Below the pieces are notes generated by a model that was not told where the DNA came from, searched no databases, and saw nothing but the letters and a program-made list of their open reading frames with translations. The position numbers and the translations under genes are program-made. Shown one piece after another: positions 1 through 10,908 of a stretch of DNA of 13,547 nucleotides. Source of the stretch: Halothiobacillaceae bacterium (GTDB taxonomy: Bacteria; Pseudomonadota; Gammaproteobacteria; Halothiobacillales; Halothiobacillaceae); contig JAQVHL010000059.1 of the NCBI GenBank assembly GCA_028696185.1, positions 1 to 13,547 of the forward strand, read 5' to 3'. Position 1 is the first letter of the stretch. Every line of letters begins with the position of its first letter.

Positions 1-298
1 TGTACAACCATCAATTGCCTCAGTCAGCTCTTAAAAGCAAAACGCCTATGCAGGCCATGAAAGACTGGTATGCTTCACATCCTCAGCTATTCCACCGAAG
101 ACCGTACAATCGTCCGGGATGCGACAACTATCAACAGACGCTCCCTGACAATCAACGCAACCCCAAACTGCCTATAGATTTGGGCACATCAACCACCACC
201 AATCTGGACAAGGCGGCACTACGGGTGCGTAGGGGTGTGATGGGGACATGCCCCCTGCTCGTCGTGGCCGCCACGCAGGCCACATGGAATGGACAACC

Positions 299-1156
299 CT
301 ATTCCCCCTGAAACAAATCGAGGGTTTGCGGATTTCGTCCGCGCGGACGCATGGACGCCCCCGCCGAACTGAGCAGCGAGCGAATGCGCTGTATCGAGTA
401 GCCCGTTTCGTCTGCAAGTTGCCGCACGCTGAACCCCATCTCGTAGCGCACTCGCAGCTCTTGGCCAATGGCATCCGCCCGCGCCTGATTGAGATGCTCA
501 TTGGGAAGCAGGGGGGGCAAGATCGCCCCGCCTTCATACCCCTTGTGCACCGCACCACGCGGGGTGACGTCATCCGAAGATTCATCGCCCCACGCCGTCC
601 AGCCTGGGCGCGCATGCCGAGCGAACAGTTCGAGATAGGCCCCTGGCGAGCAGGATTCAATCAGATCGTACTGCTCATCCGGCTTGCGCGAATGCTCGCG
701 CTTGCGCGTTTCGATCATGTTCACCTGAGACCGCCCCGGCGCGAGTGTGCGCATGGAGCCTCGAACGCCGAACAGGAGCAGTTCGGTGACGTTCCGAAAA
801 TAAAAACCCACGCCGCGGCCGTCCGGGCCGCCATCCTTGCGCCGCTTAGCCCAGACGATGTTGGAAACGTAGCGGAATCCCCAGGCCGTCATGACATCCA
901 GCCCGTCTGGCAGCAACGCATTGGGCACCCACAGGTAAAGGTGTGCATTGGGTGCCACAACGCTTTGGACATCCATCGCCTTGATGGCATCCAGGGACAT
1001 CGTCGAATAGCGATCCAGCCTGCGATGCTCGGGCGCAACCTTGCCGGTTCGATTGGCAAATCGCCACGGGGGATCGGCAAGAACGGTAGAAAAGCCTCCT
1101 GCCGTTCTTGGCAAAGGAGGGGCTTCTTTTTCTTCGCGTAAGGGGCTTCTTTCCAT
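299..1156 (-). CDS. MT-A70 family N6-adenine DNA methyltransferase with C-terminal HTH-like tail. No restriction enzyme partner is visible in the window, so it is a probable orphan or accessory MTase.
   Basis: The translation contains the catalytic DPPW motif near the N-terminus (VLADPPWRF), followed by a Gly-rich SAM-binding-like segment (ELLLFGVRG). This is the MT-A70/Ime4-type permuted amino-MTase pattern. The C-terminal roughly 50 aa (GFSVRQLADETGYSIQRIRSLL) resembles a sigma70-region-4-like helix-turn-helix. The in-frame ATG at 1154-1156 is preferred over the upstream GTG at 1165. Stop TAG at 299-301. The gene sits in a locally lower-GC context. Confidence 0.8.
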   Translation of the reverse strand: MERSPLREEKEAPPLPRTAGGFSTVLADPPWRFANRTGKVAPEHRRLDRYSTMSLDAIKAMDVQSVVAPNAHLYLWVPNALLPDGLDVMTAWGFRYVSNIVWAKRRKDGGPDGRGVGFYFRNVTELLLFGVRGSMRTLAPGRSQVNMIETRKREHSRKPDEQYDLIESCSPGAYLELFARHARPGWTAWGDESSDDVTPRGAVHKGYEGGAILPPLLPNEHLNQARADAIGQELRVRYEMGFSVRQLADETGYSIQRIRSLLSSAGASMRPRGRNPQTLDLFQGE

Positions 1157-1175
1157 GATACGCACCCTACATCAA

Positions 1176-1199
1176 ATAAAGATCTTTATAAAGATCTTT
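1176..1199. repeat. Tandem 2x 12-bp direct repeat ATAAAGATCTTT. Each copy contains the 10-bp palindrome AAAGATCTTT with a central GATC. Candidate operator or methylation-sensitive site in the MTase/transporter divergent promoter region.
   Basis: Read directly from the sequence: 1176-1187 equals 1188-1199. It is AT-rich in a GC-rich genome and lies 20 bp upstream of the MTase start codon. Confidence 0.6.
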
Positions 1200-1347
1200 T
1201 TGTTCCGACCTGCAAGAGAACTCTTTTCAGCCTGACTCATGCCCCCTGCGGCTCTGCGGCTGGAAAAGCCCTGGAATCCGCCGCATCATCCACGCATTAT
1301 CGAAACCCTGTAAAAACCATCGATCCCTCACCACAAGGAAAACCGTC

Positions 1348-4526: not shown

Positions 4527-6140
<1,614 letters not shown>

Positions 6141-6156
6141 GTCTGCTTATCCTGAA

Positions 6157-6176
6157 AGATAAATATAGATAAATAA
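6157..6176. repeat. Tandem AT-rich 10-mer repeat (AGATAAATAT / AGATAAATAA) immediately upstream of the rtcR start
   Basis: Seen directly in the sequence. It lies within a 120-bp AT-rich island separating rtcR from the sigma54 promoter. Confidence 0.4.
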
Positions 6177-6240
6177 TTCTAGTCCATTTCCAGTCGCAGA
6201 GAGATCATCGTCCACACCTGATGCTTTTATACTTCTTTTA

Positions 6241-6253
6241 TATCAATGGCTTA
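6241..6253 (+). promoter_or_regulatory. Candidate IHF binding site (TATCAATGGCTTA, matching WATCAANNNNTTR) upstream of the sigma54 promoter
   Basis: Perfect match to the IHF core consensus, located about 30 bp upstream of the -24 element. The AT-rich flanks are typical of DNA-bending sites at sigma54 promoters. Confidence 0.4.
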
Positions 6254-6281
6254 TTGATTTGCATCGGGGCGTTGGCGGTGC

Positions 6282-6296
6282 TGGCACGCTCCTCGC
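6282..6296 (+). promoter_or_regulatory. Sigma54 (RpoN) -24/-12 promoter for the rtc operon: TGGCACG-CTCC-TCGC
   Basis: Matches TGGCACG-N4-TTGC at all positions but one (TCGC for TTGC) with correct spacing. It is oriented toward the SPFH-rtcB-rtcA genes and is divergent from the sigma54 activator gene rtcR, the organisation known from E. coli and Salmonella rtc loci. Confidence 0.65.
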
Positions 6297-6422
6297 CAAT
6301 ACCTTCCTGATCGCGAAAGAGCGCAAAGGCCTTCGGGTCGGGGGTCTTCCCCCACCGGTGCGCACGCCCCGGAGGATATTTCCGGTCGGATGTGTGTATG
6401 CCGCCGCGCGTTCACGTGATCT

Positions 6423-6470
6423 TCGCGAGTCCATGGGGATTTTCCGGGTTCGACTCCCGGCTCGCGGCCA
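6423..6470 (+). ncRNA. tRNA-like minihelix: a 7-bp acceptor stem (UCGCGAG/CUCGCGG, U1-G72 wobble) plus a canonical T-arm (CCGGG-UUCGACU-CCCGG), ending in an encoded CCA. It has no D arm or anticodon arm.
   Basis: Read directly from the sequence. T-loop TTCGACT matches the T-Psi-C-R-A consensus. A 14-nt linker (UCCAUGGGGAUUUU) replaces the D and anticodon arms. CCA at 6468-6470 immediately follows the 3' acceptor strand. It shares the 14-mer GGGTTCGACTCCCG and a CCATGGG(G)AT motif with the adjacent element. Confidence 0.45.
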
Positions 6471-6539
6471 TGGGATAGCTCAGTGGGTAGAGCAGCCGTT
6501 GACCACGGCCGGTCGCGGGTTCGACTCCCGCTCCAAGCT
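6469..6539 (+). ncRNA. tRNA-like element or pseudo-tRNA. The D arm, T arm and 5-nt variable loop are canonical, but the acceptor stem is disrupted (4 of 7 pairs) and the anticodon loop is shortened.
   Basis: The arms read: U8A9; GCTC-AGTGGGTA-GAGC; A26; GCCGT-TGACC-ACGGC (5-bp stem with 5-nt loop; the alternative is a 4-bp stem with a 7-nt loop TTGACCA, anticodon GAC); variable loop CGGTC; GCGGG-TTCGACT-CCCGC; 3' strand TCCAAGC. The 5' strand CATGGGA pairs with only 4 of its 7 positions. It is not a canonical decodable tRNA. It lies on the same strand as the rtc operon and downstream of it. Confidence 0.5.
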
Positions 6540-6603
6540 TGTCTGCCTTGCGGACAGATTGACGTTGATACTTGCCGGTACGTGGCGTGCGCGAGCACCC
6601 GCC

Positions 6604-6618
6604 GCCGGTCTGACCGGC
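6604..6618. promoter_or_regulatory. 15-bp perfect palindrome GCCGGTC-T-GACCGGC in the rtc leader, a candidate protein-binding site
   Basis: Seen in the sequence. The 1-nt spacer makes an RNA hairpin unlikely, which favours a dimeric DNA-binding site. A 6-bp/3-nt-loop hairpin CCTTGC-GTG-GCAAGG follows at 6629-6643. Confidence 0.3.
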
Positions 6619-6782
6619 TCCCGGGCCACCTTGCGTGGCAAGGGAGGGGGCGGCAGCGGCATGCACCGATCCAGGCGATGGGTGTATGCGTGCTACGCCG
6701 TTCTCTGCCTCCCCGCGTCAGGCGCCTGGGTGGTCCGTCGGACGGGCGTTGGCCGGCAAGGCTTATTACAAGGAGAAGCACG

Positions 6783-7928
6783 ATGCTCAAGCGTTTCATC
6801 GTGAAGAAAAACGAACGTGGTGCCCTGATGCGGGATGGCGATTTCGAACGCCTGCTCGACGCCGGGCGGCATTATTTCTGGGATCCGCTGGGTCGCCTGT
6901 CGCTGGTGACCTGGAAACTGGACGCACCGATGGATGCGACCGATATTGTCGAGTACCTGCGCCGTCATGCTCCTGCGCTTGCCGAGCGTAGTTTCGAGTG
7001 CATGATCCTGGGCGAGGATGAAGCCGGGTTGCGATTTGAAAACGACATCCTGGTGGAGATTCTTGCGCCCGGAACGCGGCGCTTCTACTGGAAAGGGCTG
7101 GTGGCACACCGGCTGGAGCGGGTCGATCTGCGTGAGGACTGTCGCGTGGCTGCGCCCACGCTTGCACACTTGATACAGCCTGATCTGCGTGGGCGAGCGC
7201 TTGCGGGGTTGTCCGGCGTGCTGCTTGCACAGGTGCCGCCACACCATGTGGGTATTCTGCGTATCGATGGCAAGGAGCAGGGGCTGCTTGAACCGGGCAT
7301 GGCCGCGTTCTGGCGCTTCAACCGCGACGTGCAACTGGAGCGGGTCGATACCCGCCTGCAAGCGATGGAGGTCAGTGGGCAGGAAATCCTGACGCGCGAC
7401 AAGGTGAGCCTGCGCCTGAATCTGGCCGCCACCTGGCGTTATGCCGATGTGCGTGTCGCCCATGCCCGTCTGGCGCGACCGGTGGAGTATCTCTACCGCG
7501 AGTTGCAGTTTGGTTTGCGTTCGGCGGTCGGTACGCGCCATCTCGATGAACTGCTGGAAAACAAGCAGATCATCGATGGAGGCGTGATCCAGCATGTACG
7601 CGCCCGCTTGGAAGGCTTCGGGATCGAGATCGAGAGCCTGGGGGTGAAGGACATCATCCTGCCGGGGGAGATGAAGACCCTGCTGGCCCAGGTGGTCGAG
7701 GCCGAGAAATCCGCCCAGGCCAATGTGATCCGCCGCCGTGAGGAAACGGCCGCCACCCGCTCGCTGCTCAACACGGCGAAGGTCATGGAAGACAACCCCG
7801 TGGCCTTGCGGCTCAAGGAGCTGGAAACCCTGGAGCGAGTGGCCGAGCGGATCGACAGGATCTCGGTTTTTGGCGGACTGGATCAGGTTCTGGACGGATT
7901 GGTGAGCTTGCGCCCGAGCGGTGCATGA
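6783..7928 (+). CDS. SPFH/band-7 (slipin/stomatin-like) domain protein encoded inside the rtc operon
   Basis: The N-terminus MLKRFIVKKNERGALMRDGDFERLL is typical of bacterial slipin-family proteins. The C-terminal half has the SPFH coiled-coil region (KDIILPGEMKTLLAQVVEAEKSAQANVIRRREETAATRSLLNTAKV). AAGGAG RBS at 6771-6776, 6 nt before the ATG at 6783. The stop TGA at 7926-7928 is 25 nt before the rtcB start. Confidence 0.85.
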   Translation: MLKRFIVKKNERGALMRDGDFERLLDAGRHYFWDPLGRLSLVTWKLDAPMDATDIVEYLRRHAPALAERSFECMILGEDEAGLRFENDILVEILAPGTRRFYWKGLVAHRLERVDLREDCRVAAPTLAHLIQPDLRGRALAGLSGVLLAQVPPHHVGILRIDGKEQGLLEPGMAAFWRFNRDVQLERVDTRLQAMEVSGQEILTRDKVSLRLNLAATWRYADVRVAHARLARPVEYLYRELQFGLRSAVGTRHLDELLENKQIIDGGVIQHVRARLEGFGIEIESLGVKDIILPGEMKTLLAQVVEAEKSAQANVIRRREETAATRSLLNTAKVMEDNPVALRLKELETLERVAERIDRISVFGGLDQVLDGLVSLRPSGA

Positions 7929-7953
7929 CGAGTACACACGAGGAAGAATGAAA

Positions 7954-9171
7954 ATGTCGCACCAGATCATGGCTGTGGAAAACGGCAAGCCGGTCAAGAT
8001 GTGGACCGAAGGTGTCCCGGTGGAGGACGATGCACGCCGGCAACTGGCCAACACCGCGCGCATGCCGTTCATTTACGGGCATCTGGCGGTGATGCCGGAC
8101 GTACACCTGGGCAAGGGCTCGACCATCGGCAGCGTCATCCCCACCCAGGGCGCGATTATTCCGGCGGCGGTCGGTGTGGACATCGGCTGCGGGATGATGG
8201 CTGCGCGCACTTCGCTTGTGGCCGCCGATTTGCCCGACAACCTGCATCCTCTGCGTACGGCCATCGAAAAAGCGGTGCCGCACGGGCGCAGCGTGGGGCG
8301 AGGGCGGCGCGACGTGGGGAGCTGGGAAAATCCGCCGGCGAACGTGGATGCGCAGTGGGCCGCGCTGCTGCCTGGCTTCAACCGCATCACCGAAAAATAC
8401 CCGCGCCTGAAAAACACCAATCACTACAAGCATCTGGGGACACTGGGTACCGGAAATCATTTCATCGAAGTCTGCCTGGACGAGTCCGAACGGGTCTGGT
8501 TCATGCTGCATTCGGGGTCGCGTGGCGTGGGCAATGCCATTGGCAGCCTGTTCATCGAACTGGCGCAACAGGACATGCGCCAGCATATCGCCAATCTGCC
8601 GGACCGGGACCTGGCGTATTTTGAGGAAGGCAGCGTGCATTTCTCCGATTATGTCGAAGCGGTTGGCTGGGCGCAGGACTATGCCCGCCGCAATCGAGCG
8701 GCGATGATGGAAAATGTGATTGCCGCAGCGAGAACAGTGATTGCCAGGCCCTTCCGGGCCGACATCGAGGCGGTGAATTGCCACCACAACTATGTGCAGC
8801 GCGAGACGCACTTCGGCGCCGAGATTCTGGTGACCCGCAAGGGTGCGGTATCGGCCCGAAAGGGCGAGCTGGGCATCATCCCCGGCTCCATGGGCGCAAG
8901 GAGCTACATCGTGCGCGGTCTGGGCAATGAGGCGTCGTTCTGTTCCTGCAGCCACGGCGCAGGACGCGCGATGAGCCGGAACGAAGCGCGGCGTCGCTTC
9001 ACGCTCGATGACCAGATCCGCGCGACCGAGGGCGTTGAATGCCGCAAGGATGAAGCCGTCATCGACGAAATTCCCATGGCCTACAAGGACATCGACGCCG
9101 TGATGCACGCCCAGCGCGAACTGGTGGAAGTGCTGCATACGCTACGTCAGGTCGTGTGCGTGAAGGGGTAA
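7954..9171 (+). CDS. rtcB: RtcB RNA ligase (joins 3'-phosphate or 2',3'-cyclic phosphate ends to 5'-OH ends)
   Basis: The 405-aa product is near-collinear with E. coli RtcB: KMWTEGVPVE, MPDVHLGKGSTIGSVIPT, GTGNHFIE, NCHHNY, SCSHGAGR, and the C-terminal EVLHTLRQVVCVKG. GAGGA at 7940-7944 sits 9 nt before the ATG at 7954. The upstream in-frame GTG at 7921 and ATG at 7948 are less likely. Confidence 0.95.
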   Translation: MSHQIMAVENGKPVKMWTEGVPVEDDARRQLANTARMPFIYGHLAVMPDVHLGKGSTIGSVIPTQGAIIPAAVGVDIGCGMMAARTSLVAADLPDNLHPLRTAIEKAVPHGRSVGRGRRDVGSWENPPANVDAQWAALLPGFNRITEKYPRLKNTNHYKHLGTLGTGNHFIEVCLDESERVWFMLHSGSRGVGNAIGSLFIELAQQDMRQHIANLPDRDLAYFEEGSVHFSDYVEAVGWAQDYARRNRAAMMENVIAAARTVIARPFRADIEAVNCHHNYVQRETHFGAEILVTRKGAVSARKGELGIIPGSMGARSYIVRGLGNEASFCSCSHGAGRAMSRNEARRRFTLDDQIRATEGVECRKDEAVIDEIPMAYKDIDAVMHAQRELVEVLHTLRQVVCVKG

Positions 9172-9190
9172 GAGCGCAAATGTGCGCTCT
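9171..9190 (+). other. Perfect 8-bp stem / 4-nt loop hairpin (AGAGCGCA-AATG-TGCGCTCT) between the rtcB stop and the rtcA start
   Basis: Seen in the sequence and overlapping the rtcB TAA. No U-tract follows, so it is more likely an intercistronic processing or stability element than a terminator. Confidence 0.35.
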
Positions 9191-9220
9191 ACCATGACAG
9201 GGGCTTCCTTGCAGGGGGGA

Positions 9221-10249
9221 ATGATGGAGCCGATCGAACTGGATGGTTCGCAGGGCGAGGGTGGCGGCCAGATCCTTCGCAGCGCGCTGAGCCTGTCGAT
9301 GATTACCGGTAAGCCGTTCGTGATCGAACGCATACGGGCGCGGCGTGCCCGGCCGGGCCTGTTGCGCCAGCATATTACCGCCGTGCTCGCGGCGGCGGAA
9401 ATCTCGCAGGCGCAGCTGAGCGGGGCCGAGCTGGGTTCCTCGACCCTGCGCTTTCAACCCGGTCCGGTACGCGGAGGAGAGTACCGCTTTGCCATCGGCT
9501 CGGCGGGCAGTTGCACGCTGGTGCTGCAAACCCTGCTGCCGGCGCTCTGGTTTGCGGATGCGCCCAGCCGGGTGTCGATCCGTGGGGGAACGCACAATCA
9601 GGCCGCGCCCACGGCGGATTTCCTGATCCACAGCTGGCTTCCGCTCATGCGGCGGATGGGGGTGCACGATACGCTGACCTTGCTCCGGCACGGCTTTTAT
9701 CCGGCCGGCGGGGGCGAGATCGAAGCCTGCATCGAGCCGGTCGGCGCCTTGCGTCCCCTCGTCCTGGATGCGCCGGGTGAGCTGGTCTCCATGCAGGCCC
9801 GCGTGCTTCTTGCCGGCGTTGCTGGTGACGTGGCGCGGCGTGAGCTGGGCCGTCTGCGTGAGCGTCTGGGGCCCCTGGAGGGGCGGATCGAGGCCCTGCC
9901 CGCCTGCGAGGGGCCGGGCAATGTCCTGAGCGTCGAGCGGACACATGCCGGGCTTTCCCTGCTGTTTACGGCCATCGGCACAAAGGGGGTGTCGGCGGAA
10001 AAGGTGGCCGATCAAGCAAGTGAGGCGGTTCTGCGCCATGCGCGCAGTGGCGCGGCGGTGGAGGAGTATCTGGCGGACCAGCTTGTCTTGCCGATGGCCT
10101 TGGCCGGCGGTGGTCGTTTCAGCACGTCCACGCTGTCCTCGCACCTGCGTACCCAGTGCGCGGTGATCGGGCGGTTTCTTGGGGTCGATTTCACGTTCAC
10201 CCCAATGCAGGGCGTCGTCGTAGTCGGCGTGGGTGAGTTGGCAGGATAA
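9221..10249 (+). CDS. rtcA: RtcA RNA 3'-terminal phosphate cyclase
   Basis: Strong collinearity with E. coli RtcA: IELDGSQGEGGGQILRSALSLSMITGKPF, RAKPGLLRQH-like, GGEYRFAIGSAGSCTLVLQTLLPALWFAD, LLRHGFYPAGGG, YLADQLVLPMALAGGG. The ATG at 9221 is chosen because it matches the homologue N-terminus. The in-frame ATG at 9194 and the listed ORF start at 9182 are possible alternatives. Confidence 0.9.
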   Translation: MMEPIELDGSQGEGGGQILRSALSLSMITGKPFVIERIRARRARPGLLRQHITAVLAAAEISQAQLSGAELGSSTLRFQPGPVRGGEYRFAIGSAGSCTLVLQTLLPALWFADAPSRVSIRGGTHNQAAPTADFLIHSWLPLMRRMGVHDTLTLLRHGFYPAGGGEIEACIEPVGALRPLVLDAPGELVSMQARVLLAGVAGDVARRELGRLRERLGPLEGRIEALPACEGPGNVLSVERTHAGLSLLFTAIGTKGVSAEKVADQASEAVLRHARSGAAVEEYLADQLVLPMALAGGGRFSTSTLSSHLRTQCAVIGRFLGVDFTFTPMQGVVVVGVGELAG

Positions 10250-10385: not shown

Positions 10386-10643
10386 ATGCGCGTGGTGAAT
10401 TTTTCTGAAGCTCGTAACAGCCTCAAAAATGTAATCGATCAGGTCATCAACGATGCGGACTACACGGTGATTGTGAGACGGGATGCCCCCAATGCCGTCG
10501 TGATGTCGCTGGATACCTTCAACGGACTCATGGAGACCGTCCATCTGTTGAAATCGCCAGCCAATGCGACGCATCTGGCCCGTTCCATTGACCAGTACCG
10601 CCAGGGGCTGGTTTCGCAACGAGATCGGGTTGATGCCGACTGA
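10386..10643 (+). CDS. yefM: YefM antitoxin (Phd/YefM family)
   Basis: The 85-aa product (MRVVNFSEARNSLKNVIDQV...VVMSLDTFNGLMETVHLLKSPANATHLARSID) aligns along its length with E. coli YefM. Its stop overlaps the downstream toxin gene. Confidence 0.9.
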   Translation: MRVVNFSEARNSLKNVIDQVINDADYTVIVRRDAPNAVVMSLDTFNGLMETVHLLKSPANATHLARSIDQYRQGLVSQRDRVDAD

Positions 10644-10908
10644 GGAAAACGTGCTCACGCTGACGTGGACTTTGGCGGCCTGGAGTGATTACGAATACTG
10701 GCAAGGCCAGGATCGCAAAACACTCAAGCGCATCAATGCGTTGCTCAAGGACTGCCTGCGTCATCCGTTTGAGGGGATCGGCAAGCCTGAGCCCTTGAAA
10801 GAGAATCTCTCGGGTTTCTGGTCACGCCGCATAGACGATACGCATCGCCTGGTCTACTGCGCCGATGGGCAGTCGCTGGTAATCATCGCTTGCCGTTATC
10901 ACTATTAA
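10633..10908 (+). CDS. yoeB: YoeB toxin (ribosome-dependent mRNA interferase, RelE/ParE superfamily)
   Basis: The C-terminal 80 aa align with E. coli YoeB, including HPFEGIGKPEPLKENLSGFWSRRIDDTHRLVY...IIACRYHY and the catalytic end. The ATG at 10633 overlaps the yefM 3' end by 11 nt. The GTG at 10651 (SD GAGGA 10642-10646) is an alternative start that gives a product of E. coli YoeB length. Confidence 0.9.
   Translation: MPTEENVLTLTWTLAAWSDYEYWQGQDRKTLKRINALLKDCLRHPFEGIGKPEPLKENLSGFWSRRIDDTHRLVYCADGQSLVIIACRYHY

Follow-up and report, generated by a model that had tools for sequence, protein, structure and literature searches.

A BglII/BstYI-type restriction-modification cassette disarmed by an insertion sequence, with a probably self-repressing MT-A70 methylase

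Results and discussion

Positions 1-1271 of the window (the whole 13,547-nt stretch of Halothiobacillaceae DNA analysed here) are best explained as a decayed BglII/BstYI-type restriction-modification (R-M) cassette, and it is likely that its methylase represses its own promoter through a C-terminal helix-turn-helix (HTH) tail acting at copies of the enzyme's own target sequence. The cassette is a remnant of a BglII/BstYI (Nph3I-like) type II R-M system without a working nuclease, because only about 60 endonuclease codons are left, while L087 and L088, cassettes of 99% identity, retain the whole gene. Comparison of homologous loci suggests that the tail probably binds the promoter sites and so mediates autorepression, which is possibly methylation-sensitive. 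The R-M system itself is of a known kind, and its regulatory layout appears to be undescribed: searches of the literature (PF19575; MT-A70 with HTH and restriction-modification) returned no description of a tail-bearing MT-A70 methylase with its own target sites as operators. The parts of the cassette are as follows.

1..126 (+): right end of an IS481-family element, the last ~41-42 transposase codons; the contig ends inside the element
127..311 (+): 3' remnant of a BglII/BstYI-family endonuclease gene, ~codons 174-234 and the stop
299..1156 (-): intact methylase gene, 285 aa from the ATG at 1156, with MT-A70 core, linker and C-terminal HTH
1198..1271 (no strand): upstream end of the mobile cassette; homology to L087/L088 (99% identical) ends at ~1271

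An endonuclease gene cut by an insertion sequence

The endonuclease remnant and the methylase gene converge, with 13 nt of overlap at the 3' end of the latter. Translated, the remnant reads KLPIDLGTSTTTNLDKAALRVRRGVMGTCPLLVVAATQATWNGQPYSP* and aligns with the C-terminal ends of the endonucleases of L081 and L083 (77% protein identity for L083); L081 holds the intact cassette of Ramlibacter tataouinensis TTB310, a cultured strain. The DNA of the remnant is 99% identical to L087/L088, where a 234-aa ORF matches PF09195. The first ~173 endonuclease codons are gone from the window copy, and no intact cognate endonuclease gene adjoins the methylase. The invariant residues D115, E126 and K130 lie upstream of the break, so the catalytic region is missing from the remnant. 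A first, sequence-only reading of this DNA had seen no restriction endonuclease, and had taken a cognate restriction gene as the mark of an ordinary R-M system; such a gene is present as the C-terminal ~60 residues at 127-311 (+), inside the window, and is intact in near-identical cassettes.

The gene is cut at 126/127, and the alignment with L087, an intact cassette, breaks off at 124-127. The transposase C-terminal end encoded before this point has 81% identity to annotated IS481-family transposases (tblastn), such as that of Delftia pUO1, which has ...GGGATGCGACA in common with the window and diverges beyond. Only one end of the element lies inside the contig. The insertion removed the 5' part of the endonuclease gene including the catalytic residues, so the methylase is solitary only secondarily, and not by origin as had been proposed. 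The aligned cassette DNA is 99% identical and the remnant has diverged little, suggesting that the insertion is recent. The junction is known from one metagenome-assembled contig, and an uninterrupted endonuclease allele may exist in the same population. What looked like an orphan epigenetic regulator is thus explained by a commonplace event, in which an insertion sequence disabled an R-M cassette and the methylase stayed behind. This is a textbook route to solitary methylases.

Cassette extent, mobility and relatives

Beyond ~1271 lies host DNA with the AI-2E transporter gene (1348-2394). The lower GC content of the flanks (0.49-0.51, against 0.61-0.64 in the methylase gene) is as first described, and the proposal of horizontal acquisition is borne out by the 99%-identical cassette, which occurs elsewhere in different flanks with its endonuclease intact. 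The cassette is also found in unrelated contexts and on plasmids. The further suggestion that the repeats upstream of the methylase gate the AI-2E promoter is unlikely to describe a selected function, because the repeats are part of the mobile cassette, recognisable by homology only up to ~1271, and stay with the methylase whatever its neighbours.

The methylase family is large, with at least 8000 candidate proteins at E <= 0.001 and at least 589 confirmed relatives in a genome scan, so the statement that MT-A70 enzymes are uncommon in bacterial chromosomes is too strong for this family. Homologs with the HTH tail extend from Proteobacteria to Actinobacteria and are also present in contigs binned as Chloroflexota and Saccharibacteria. 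In these homologs the methylase adjoins a PF09195 Endonuc-BglII gene (RefSeq name 'BglII/BstYI family type II restriction endonuclease'), a recognisable neighbour of this kind being absent in ~8 of 39. The intact nuclease gave no phmmer match to PDB chains, and its profile match to BstYI (1SDO) is weak (E 0.0013).

Neither positions 127-1271 nor L087/L088 contain an additional small controller (C) ORF, and only a few split variants (L038, L040-L042) encode the HTH in an ORF of its own. Rfam found no RNA elements over 1-1400, and a scan of the window found no terminator-like site at the junction of the two genes. A 12-nt repeat, CATGCCCCCTGC, at 247-258 and 1238-1249 is no more than chance would give in 1.5 kb.

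The methylase and its tail

The minus-strand ORF at 299-1165 is present as first reported. Translation probably begins at the ATG at 1156, the start also used in the NCBI model P0001, which gives 285 aa. The alternative GTG start would give a 288-aa product, for which an exact look-up had no match; the catalogued product begins at the ATG. Pfam supports both domains proposed from the sequence.

581..1093 (-): MT-A70 catalytic domain, PF05063, residues 25-195, E 5e-29, above the gathering score
332..475 (-): HTH_58 domain, PF19575, residues 231-278, E 3e-9, above the gathering score

The features required of an adenine methylase, an AdoMet-binding fold and a catalytic motif, are in place, given the MT-A70 domain and an intact DPPW (1064-1075). 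The protein also matches the PHROG 359 DNA methyltransferase (E 7e-56), and among solved structures the nearest in sequence come from Tetrahymena MT-A70 family proteins and METTL3. Identity reaches 99% to the methylase of L087, an intact cassette, and 70% over 185 aa of the core to M.Nph3I, which has been characterised. The enzyme most probably makes N6-methyladenine in (R)GATC(Y), including AGATCT, a specificity assigned by homology at 70% core identity that covers both AGATCT and RGATCY as candidates.

The recognition helix of HTH_58 (...TGYSIQRIRSLL...) is followed by a basic MRPRGR segment, and the tail sequence is conserved across phyla. An AF2 model places three helices at residues 224-264 (pLDDT 70-85) after an unstructured stretch at 181-223, a low-confidence linker of ~40 residues ahead of HTH_58. 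The model was built on a shallow alignment (79-89% identical to the query) and has a mean pLDDT of 50 and a poor catalytic core, and its use here is limited to the three tail helices and the disordered linker. A profile search of the tail against the PDB gave only generic weak HTH matches, to an IS21-type transposase and P1 ParB. The tail is very probably dispensable for catalysis: the tail-less M.Nph3I is active and specific in vitro, and the AF2 tail is a separate module. Since the core model is poor, dimerisation is taken by analogy with other MT-A70 enzymes, and on that basis the methylase is probably a dimer.

It is very improbable that the tail is instead a target-recognition domain for AGATCT throughout the genome, with the promoter pair as a high-affinity loading site; the operator core is the presumed recognition sequence and HTH domains are able to read 6-bp cores, but M.Nph3I, which is sequence-specific in vitro, and other tail-less homologs end right after the conserved PRGxxHxGY, and L038 and L040-L042 encode the HTH apart from the methylase, in a small ORF.

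Paired probable target sites in the methylase promoter

The tandem repeat described upstream of the gene, an exact 2x ATAAAGATCTTT at 1176-1199, is present and forms a 22-bp perfect palindrome. It holds two AGATCT sites, 12 bp apart and 23-40 nt upstream of the methylase ATG. The 13.5-kb window has three AGATCT sites in all, two of which are this promoter pair.

1164..1169 (-): putative -10 box TAGGGT, 7 nt before the ATG
1180..1185 (no strand): promoter-proximal AGATCT, within the putative promoter spacer; its position relative to the start codon is kept in homologs
1187-1192 (-): putative -35 box TTTATA
1192..1197 (no strand): promoter-distal AGATCT, abutting the putative -35 box

Both boxes were read from the sequence and fall below threshold in a consensus promoter scan, whose sole call (1314-1285) is outside the cassette. 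Because the -10 box would lie only 7 nt before the ATG, a leaderless mRNA is implied, and we infer a leaderless promoter with the two sites bracketing its -35 box. A TANNNT motif 5-9 nt before the start occurs in 17 of 38 tail-bearing homologs, against a background of 2%.

The promoter sites are very probably the methylase's own targets, because its core is 70% identical to that of M.Nph3I, for which RG(6mA)TCY has been shown experimentally. The own recognition site, assigned by homology, thus lies inside the methylase promoter, as control of the AhdI/CfrBI type requires.

Sites and tail across homologs

At least two RGATCY sites occur within 150 nt upstream of the start in 37 of 39 non-redundant tail-bearing homologs, and two AGATCT in 27 of those 37. 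Since the pair recurs at this frequency, its presence in the window is not a matter of chance. AGATCT reaches a density of 10.8 per kb upstream of tail-bearing methylases, whereas the flanks have 0.13 per kb. Avoidance of AGATCT in flanking DNA is not evident, as the ~0.12-0.13 per kb found there is near expectation.

None of the 43 tail-less homologs has paired upstream RGATCY sites, although much of this correlation is one evolutionary event, because the main tail-less group is a separate clade, and only ~3 further co-losses of tail and sites are independent. Tail-less or split members nested in the tail-bearing clade (L036, L037/L043, L038-L042) also lack the pair. A single AGATCT precedes two of the three separate HTH ORFs of L040-L042, where it is not conserved in the alignment, and no operator was found for these ORFs. 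Operator-like sites are likewise absent upstream of endonuclease genes, except where the promoter region is shared.

Measured from the start codon and -10 box, the sites lie at a constant position, start codons having been assigned automatically at some of the loci, and the sequence between the sites diverges. Spacing is 12 or 17-24 bp. The conserved motif extends past the hexamer by A/T flanks, and in Actinobacteria conservation reaches arms of 9-10 bp. Departures from AGATCT always remain within RGATCY. L024 has two AGATCC sites, and its recognition helix is altered too. The comparison supports the view that the repeats are functional and tied to the methylase, and lends weight to both roles first put forward for them, as methylation targets and as binding sites for HTH autoregulation. 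These two roles are not mutually exclusive.

Proposed regulation and alternatives

When the cassette enters a cell, the promoter would be free and methylase would be made fast. With rising methylase levels, the two HTH tails of what is probably a dimer would bind the two sites and block RNA polymerase, so that the enzyme would repress its own gene and itself do the work of a controller protein. The operator cores would at the same time be substrates of the catalytic domain, and tail binding may therefore be tuned by their methylation state. In the intact proteobacterial cassettes methylase transcription would run head-on into the endonuclease gene with no terminator between, and early strong methylase transcription could in this way also delay endonuclease expression.

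Control by methylation alone, in the manner of AhdI or CfrBI, would have methylated sites weaken initiation by RNA polymerase, with the tail serving some other purpose, such as general DNA tethering or processivity. The promoter sites are very probably substrates, homolog deviations all stay inside RGATCY, and there are precedents in AhdI (PMC2275141) and in CfrBI, as cited in PMC3874152. We nevertheless regard this as unlikely, since tail-less homologs, whose cores are 60-76% identical and which are also paired with BglII-like genes, never carry the sites. Conservation beyond the hexamer, with the long actinobacterial arms, and the joint change of operator and recognition helix in L024 also argue against it.

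It is more improbable still that the enzyme is a genuinely solitary, acquired epigenetic methylase of the Dam/CcrM kind that sets methylation-sensitive host promoters, the divergent AI-2E promoter among them. The contig does lack a functional endonuclease while methylase gene and promoter are intact, and the ~8 of 39 tail-bearing homologs without a recognisable BglII-like neighbour show that secondary solitary life does occur. Against this reading stand the little-diverged nuclease remnant, which points to a recent insertion, the boundary at ~1271 that separates the repeats from host DNA, and the presence of only one further AGATCT in the 13.5-kb window. The repeats moreover travel with the methylase into unrelated contexts, and a Dam/CcrM-type methylase would be expected to lack any cognate nuclease, current or former, and to keep one chromosomal position through a lineage, whereas here a nuclease remnant is present and the cassette occurs in unrelated contexts and on plasmids.

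Comparison with known systems

Nph3I of the Nitratiruptor phage NrS-3 methylates and cuts RGATCY in vitro, and 6mA blocks its cleavage (PMC10734518). Like the window system it combines an MT-A70-type m6A methylase core with an Endonuc-BglII-family nuclease, and R.Nph3I is 30% identical to the intact L087 endonuclease (E 5e-26). Unlike the window methylase, M.Nph3I has 209 aa and no HTH tail. The Nph3I genes are in the order R, M and a separate XRE-type regulator. The window copy has lost its nuclease. The XRE-type regulator was considered as a homolog of the tail and ruled out, the tblastn extension being an artefact of a shared reading frame. The 4.7-kb Nph3I region has two RGATCY sites, neither of them in a promoter.

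The operators of SsoII-type methylases are distinct from their recognition site, unlike the predicted operator cores of the window system, which coincide with its own target sequence. According to references in PMC3874152, the SsoII, Ecl18kI, EcoRII, MspI and ScrFI methylases repress their own promoters through an HTH. They resemble the window methylase in having the HTH inside the methylase polypeptide, the operator in its own promoter and no separate controller, but are C5-cytosine methylases with an N-terminal HTH, whereas the window enzyme belongs to an unrelated methylase class, being an N6-adenine MT-A70 methylase with a C-terminal HTH_58.

The MS promoter of AhdI is weakened when a site covering its -10 box is methylated (PMC2275141), and PMC3874152 cites CfrBI for control of its methylase by promoter-site methylation. 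AhdI and the window kind both have their own recognition site in the methylase promoter and convergent M and R units. AhdI relies on a single site at the -10 box and controls R through a separate C protein. The window system has no C gene and carries two sites, one on either side of the putative -35 box, whose presence follows that of the HTH tail.

BglII of Bacillus and BstYI (PDB 1SDO) belong to the same Pfam family as the window nuclease and also have a GATC core in their recognition sequence, although the window nuclease is only distantly related (profile E 0.0013 to BstYI). In the BglII system the methylase is an N4-cytosine enzyme and a C protein is present.

Implications

It is possible, if on balance doubtful, that tail-bearing MT-A70 methylases form a widespread class of one-protein controllers whose tail reads the methylation of its own promoter sites. 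If so, methylase synthesis would depend directly on the protection state of the genome, as would nuclease timing by way of head-on transcription. Repression by an HTH-methylase and promoter-site methylation, two known controller-free strategies, would then be merged in one switch, which would parallel, in bacteria, the dependence of eukaryotic MT-A70 complexes on separate helical partners for DNA binding. The proposed design is simple and testable, a methylase with a DNA-binding tail that uses its own target sites as operator, and its layout is conserved from Proteobacteria to Actinobacteria. If it holds, it would account for the safe establishment of these two-gene cassettes in new hosts in the absence of a controller protein, and would provide a compact methylation-responsive promoter/repressor pair.

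A decayed restriction-modification cassette

The methylase gene is a confirmed open reading frame, and its catalogued product (P0001, 'MT-A70 family methyltransferase') has 285 aa from an ATG start at 1156. The only contig recorded for this product has 13,547 nt, the length of the window, which is therefore taken as a complete contig with a contig end at position 1. In the Pfam search both proposed domains scored above gathering: counted from the GTG start, MT-A70 covers residues 25-195 (E 5e-29), and HTH_58 covers 231-278 (E 3e-9). By sequence and comparison, the gene is intact. The raw observations of the sequence-only reading were largely right (the ORF, its domains, the promoter repeat and the GC dip, which is ~0.49-0.51 on either side of the gene vs 0.61-0.64 within), with one exception, the absence of a restriction endonuclease.

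Features of the cassette and its border
299-1165, minus strand: methylase ORF (catalogued product from ATG at 1156)
1064-1075, coding: DPPW motif of the methylase
3-311, plus strand: open frame from the contig end, IS481-family transposase C-terminus and then nuclease C-terminus
1169-1164, minus strand: TAnnnT hexamer TAGGGT, putative -10, 7 nt before the ATG
1192-1187, minus strand: putative -35 box TTTATA
1348-2394: AI-2E transporter gene

Close methylase homologs always adjoin a gene that matches Pfam Endonuc-BglII (PF09195) and is named 'BglII/BstYI family type II restriction endonuclease' in RefSeq. In Proteobacteria it is convergent with the methylase gene, and the two share 3-30 nt at their 3' ends. 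The last ~60 residues of the 3-311 frame (KLPIDLGTSTTTNLDKAALRVRRGVMGTCPLLVVAATQATWNGQPYSP*) match the C-termini of BglII-like nucleases, while the first ~41 (YNHQLPQSALKSKTPMQAMKDWY...RPGCDN) have 81% identity to IS481-family transposase C-termini. Delftia plasmid pUO1 has the same ...GGGATGCGACA but diverges right after it, so the IS ends at window 126. In metagenome contigs L087 and L088, which match window 124-1271 with 99% DNA identity, the nuclease gene is intact (234 aa), and relative to these the window gene is broken in codon ~174. The break cuts off the family's invariant residues of catalytic type (D115, E126 and K130, L087 numbering), all of them encoded further upstream, and so the remnant cannot be active. 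On these alignments the nuclease gene is disrupted by the IS, and the methylase, earlier called an orphan with no nuclease, is not one by origin: the nuclease C-terminus survives in the 3-311 frame. The insertion is recent, because the aligned DNA that is so close to the intact copy includes the remnant. The contig end falls 126 nt inside the IS, which would fit an assembly that broke off at a repeat.

The transposase frame has no stop within the element and reads in frame into the remnant, ending at the nuclease's own stop (309-311, plus strand), so that the transposase would gain a foreign C-terminal extension of ~61 aa. The pUO1 transposase has its stop 2 codons past the shared GCD. An IS110 or IS3 transposase gene stands in the nuclease gene's usual place at two other tail-bearing methylase copies, L018 8461-9681 and L094 3509-4779 (the latter on an M. 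abscessus plasmid), and no recognisable nuclease was found beside either. The L018 copy, which was checked for this, retains both promoter sites. IS-associated nuclease loss seems to be recurrent in the tail-bearing family.

Target specificity

The best phage match is in Nitratiruptor phage NrS-3, and the NrS3_07/NrS3_08 pair has been characterised: M.Nph3I turns RGATCY into RG(6mA)TCY, and R.Nph3I, which has an Endonuc-BglII domain, cleaves RGATCY unless the site carries 6mA (PMC10734518). The methylase core has 70% identity to M.Nph3I over 185 residues, and the intact L087 nuclease has 30% identity to R.Nph3I (E 5e-26). A second BglII/BstYI-like system, in Acinetobacter baumannii A118, makes m6A at RGATCY (PMC10287943), and Iyer et al. 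nest the eukaryotic MT-A70 clade within a prokaryotic radiation to which methylases of BglII R-M systems also belong (PMC4738411). We infer by homology that the methylase makes m6A at (R)GATC(Y). The homology of both methylase and nuclease to Nph3I and related systems makes it very probable that the two promoter AGATCT sites are substrates of the enzyme whose gene directly follows them. The nuclease profile matches BstYI weakly, and a methylase specificity of AGATCT or the broader RGATCY are both possible. The system type is known, and the window holds a decayed member of the Nph3I-like, BglII/BstYI family. The regulator neighbouring M.Nph3I is an XRE-type HTH protein unrelated to the tail, an analogous but not homologous component.

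A site pair that accompanies the tail

The tandem repeat at 1176-1199 (2x ATAAAGATCTTT) is exact, makes a 22-bp perfect palindrome and holds two of the three AGATCT in the 13.5-kb window. The 150 nt before the start codon were compared for every fetched homolog, in non-redundant groups of tail-bearing (at least 270 aa, n=39) and tail-less (~200-240 aa, n=43) proteins. At least two RGATCY are present upstream in 37/39 tail-bearing vs 0/43 tail-less homologs. The two regulatory hypotheses put forward earlier, methylation of the sites and binding by the HTH tail, were well aimed and gain comparative support. Two perfect AGATCT occur at 27 tail-bearing loci, and AGATCT upstream of tail-bearing genes reaches 10.8 per kb, against 0.13 per kb in flanks; none stands upstream of tail-less homologs. 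BglII-like neighbours are also present at many tail-less homologs. In a neighbour-joining tree of catalytic cores the main tail-less group branches off as its own clade, so most of the correlation is one event. Loss or splitting of the tail also occurred in three more lineages nested among the tail-bearing ones (L036; L037/L043; L038-L042), and the site pair is absent in all three. Across these loci, the pair is conserved at the methylase promoter only when the tail is present. At homologous loci no such sites were found upstream of nuclease genes, except where the promoter region is shared.

All ten paired tail-bearing loci with one perfect AGATCT have AGATCC or GGATCT as the second site at the right spacing, and L024, the only locus with AGATCC at both sites, has no AGATCT; deviations from AGATCT therefore remain within RGATCY. 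The predicted recognition helix of L024 is also altered (HGLTESRVR vs TGYSIQRVR elsewhere), a single case. The two sites are spaced by 12 bp (19 loci) or by 17-24 bp (17 loci), and there are usually 13-25 nt between the end of the proximal one and the start codon. The positions next to the hexamer are A or T in 32-35 of 36 loci. The sites of several Actinobacteria form 9-10 bp inverted arms (TAAAGATCTA ... TAGATCTTTA) with an unrelated spacer between them, which points to recognition by a protein reading beyond the hexamer.

In methylase orientation the promoter sequence is AAAAAGATCTTTATAAAGATCTTTATTTGATGTAGGGTGCGTATCATG. A TANNNT lies 5-9 nt before the start in 17/38 tail-bearing loci vs 2% at control positions, which implies a leaderless transcript. 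Given a 17-nt spacer, the putative -35 box lies exactly between the two sites, and L026 has a perfect TTGACA at the corresponding position. A protein on both sites would then occlude the -35 box and spacer. The consensus promoter scan passed over this promoter, since no more than 3/6 positions of TAGGGT match.

The HTH_58 tail and its possible role

The tail is conserved between phyla: its G-Y-S-I-x-R-V/I-R-x-L-L helix hardly varies, and a basic arm (R-x-R-G-R) is present as well. Since the tail-less M.Nph3I is active and sequence-specific in vitro, the tail should be dispensable for catalysis and target choice. The AF2 model is poor overall (mean pLDDT 50), with three helices at 224-264 (pLDDT 70-85) preceded by an unstructured 181-223, and a PDB profile search found no close solved structure for the tail. 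Its relatives among representatives of a 50%-identity library (catalogued proteins P0121-P0270) mostly have 4-9 tandem copies of the module in 200-800 aa. Among named NCBIfam entries the CRISPR repeat-binding protein Cbp1 comes nearest, as a weak match (E 5e-4). At four actinobacterial loci the split module is a separate ORF of 62-78 aa, 40-140 nt past a tail-less methylase gene (L038 10666-10854; L040 3909-4145; L041 10765-10992; L042 4857-5084), as expected of a controller that can exist fused or free. The sequence before these ORFs showed no conserved operator.

From this anatomy, the tail may bind both RGATCY sites and repress the putatively leaderless methylase promoter, with the binding possibly tuned by methylation of the operator cores. 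In intact convergent cassettes, methylase transcription would enter the nuclease gene and may delay its expression; a scan of the M/R junction found no terminator. In the window contig a self-limited methylase alone would be left, and would go on marking the host's sites.

Repression of its own gene by a methylase-borne HTH is described for SsoII, EcoRII, MspI and ScrFI (references in PMC3874152), but these are C5 enzymes with an N-terminal HTH, whereas the window family is MT-A70 with a C-terminal HTH_58. AhdI (PMC2275141) and CfrBI are controlled through methylation of their own site in the methylase promoter. What appears to set the family apart is that an MT-A70 enzyme bearing HTH_58 at its C-terminus is combined with an operator made of two copies of the system's own target, and no description of this was found in the searched literature, with REBASE and subscription journals outside the scope. 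The window instance itself is ordinary.

Cassette limits and mobility

Homology to L087/L088 stops at ~1271, past which their sequence is unrelated, so the AI-2E transporter gene is host DNA outside the cassette and the suggested gating of its promoter by the repeats is unlikely. The same M/R pair has quite different neighbourhoods in Ramlibacter and Rhodanobacter, and occurs on plasmids too, for example adjoining repA/parA on a 15-kb Roseivivax plasmid. Among the matches listed, methylases of 68-80% identity come from Proteobacteria and Actinobacteria, and also from contigs that were binned as Chloroflexota and Saccharibacteria. By sequence and comparison the region is an R-M cassette, and its distribution marks it as a selfish one that moves horizontally.

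A REP-like hairpin (GGCGGAATA-N7-TATTCCGCC) lies just beyond the cassette boundary in L087 (1-33) and L088 (1-28), and is possibly a sign of the context of insertion in that host. The 12-nt sequence CATGCCCCCTGC stands twice within the cassette as an exact direct repeat, at 247-258 (nuclease remnant) and 1238-1249 (upstream of the methylase promoter), which is within chance expectation for a region of this size.

Other loci in the window

The window also encodes an rtc RNA-repair locus, with rtcR divergent from a plus-strand unit.

4527-10249: rtc RNA-repair locus
4527-6140, minus strand: rtcR
near 6283: sigma-54-like TGGCACgctccTCGC, plus-strand rtc unit
~6447-6470: tRNA 3'-half-like segment, plus-strand rtc unit
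6467-6540: tRNA-Val(GAC)-like gene (Rfam tRNA, 39 bits), plus-strand rtc unit
listed between the tRNA-Val(GAC)-like gene and rtcB: Band_7/SPFH gene, plus-strand rtc unit
7921-9171, plus strand: rtcB
9182-10249, plus strand: rtcA
10386-10908, plus strand: toxin-antitoxin pair (YoeB toxin, YefM/Phd antitoxin) that directly follows the rtc genes

The rtc operon, which has no Ro protein gene, may contain a tRNA-like/Y-RNA-like module. The YrlA (Y RNA-like) match over 6422-6522 is weak, at 29 bits and below gathering.
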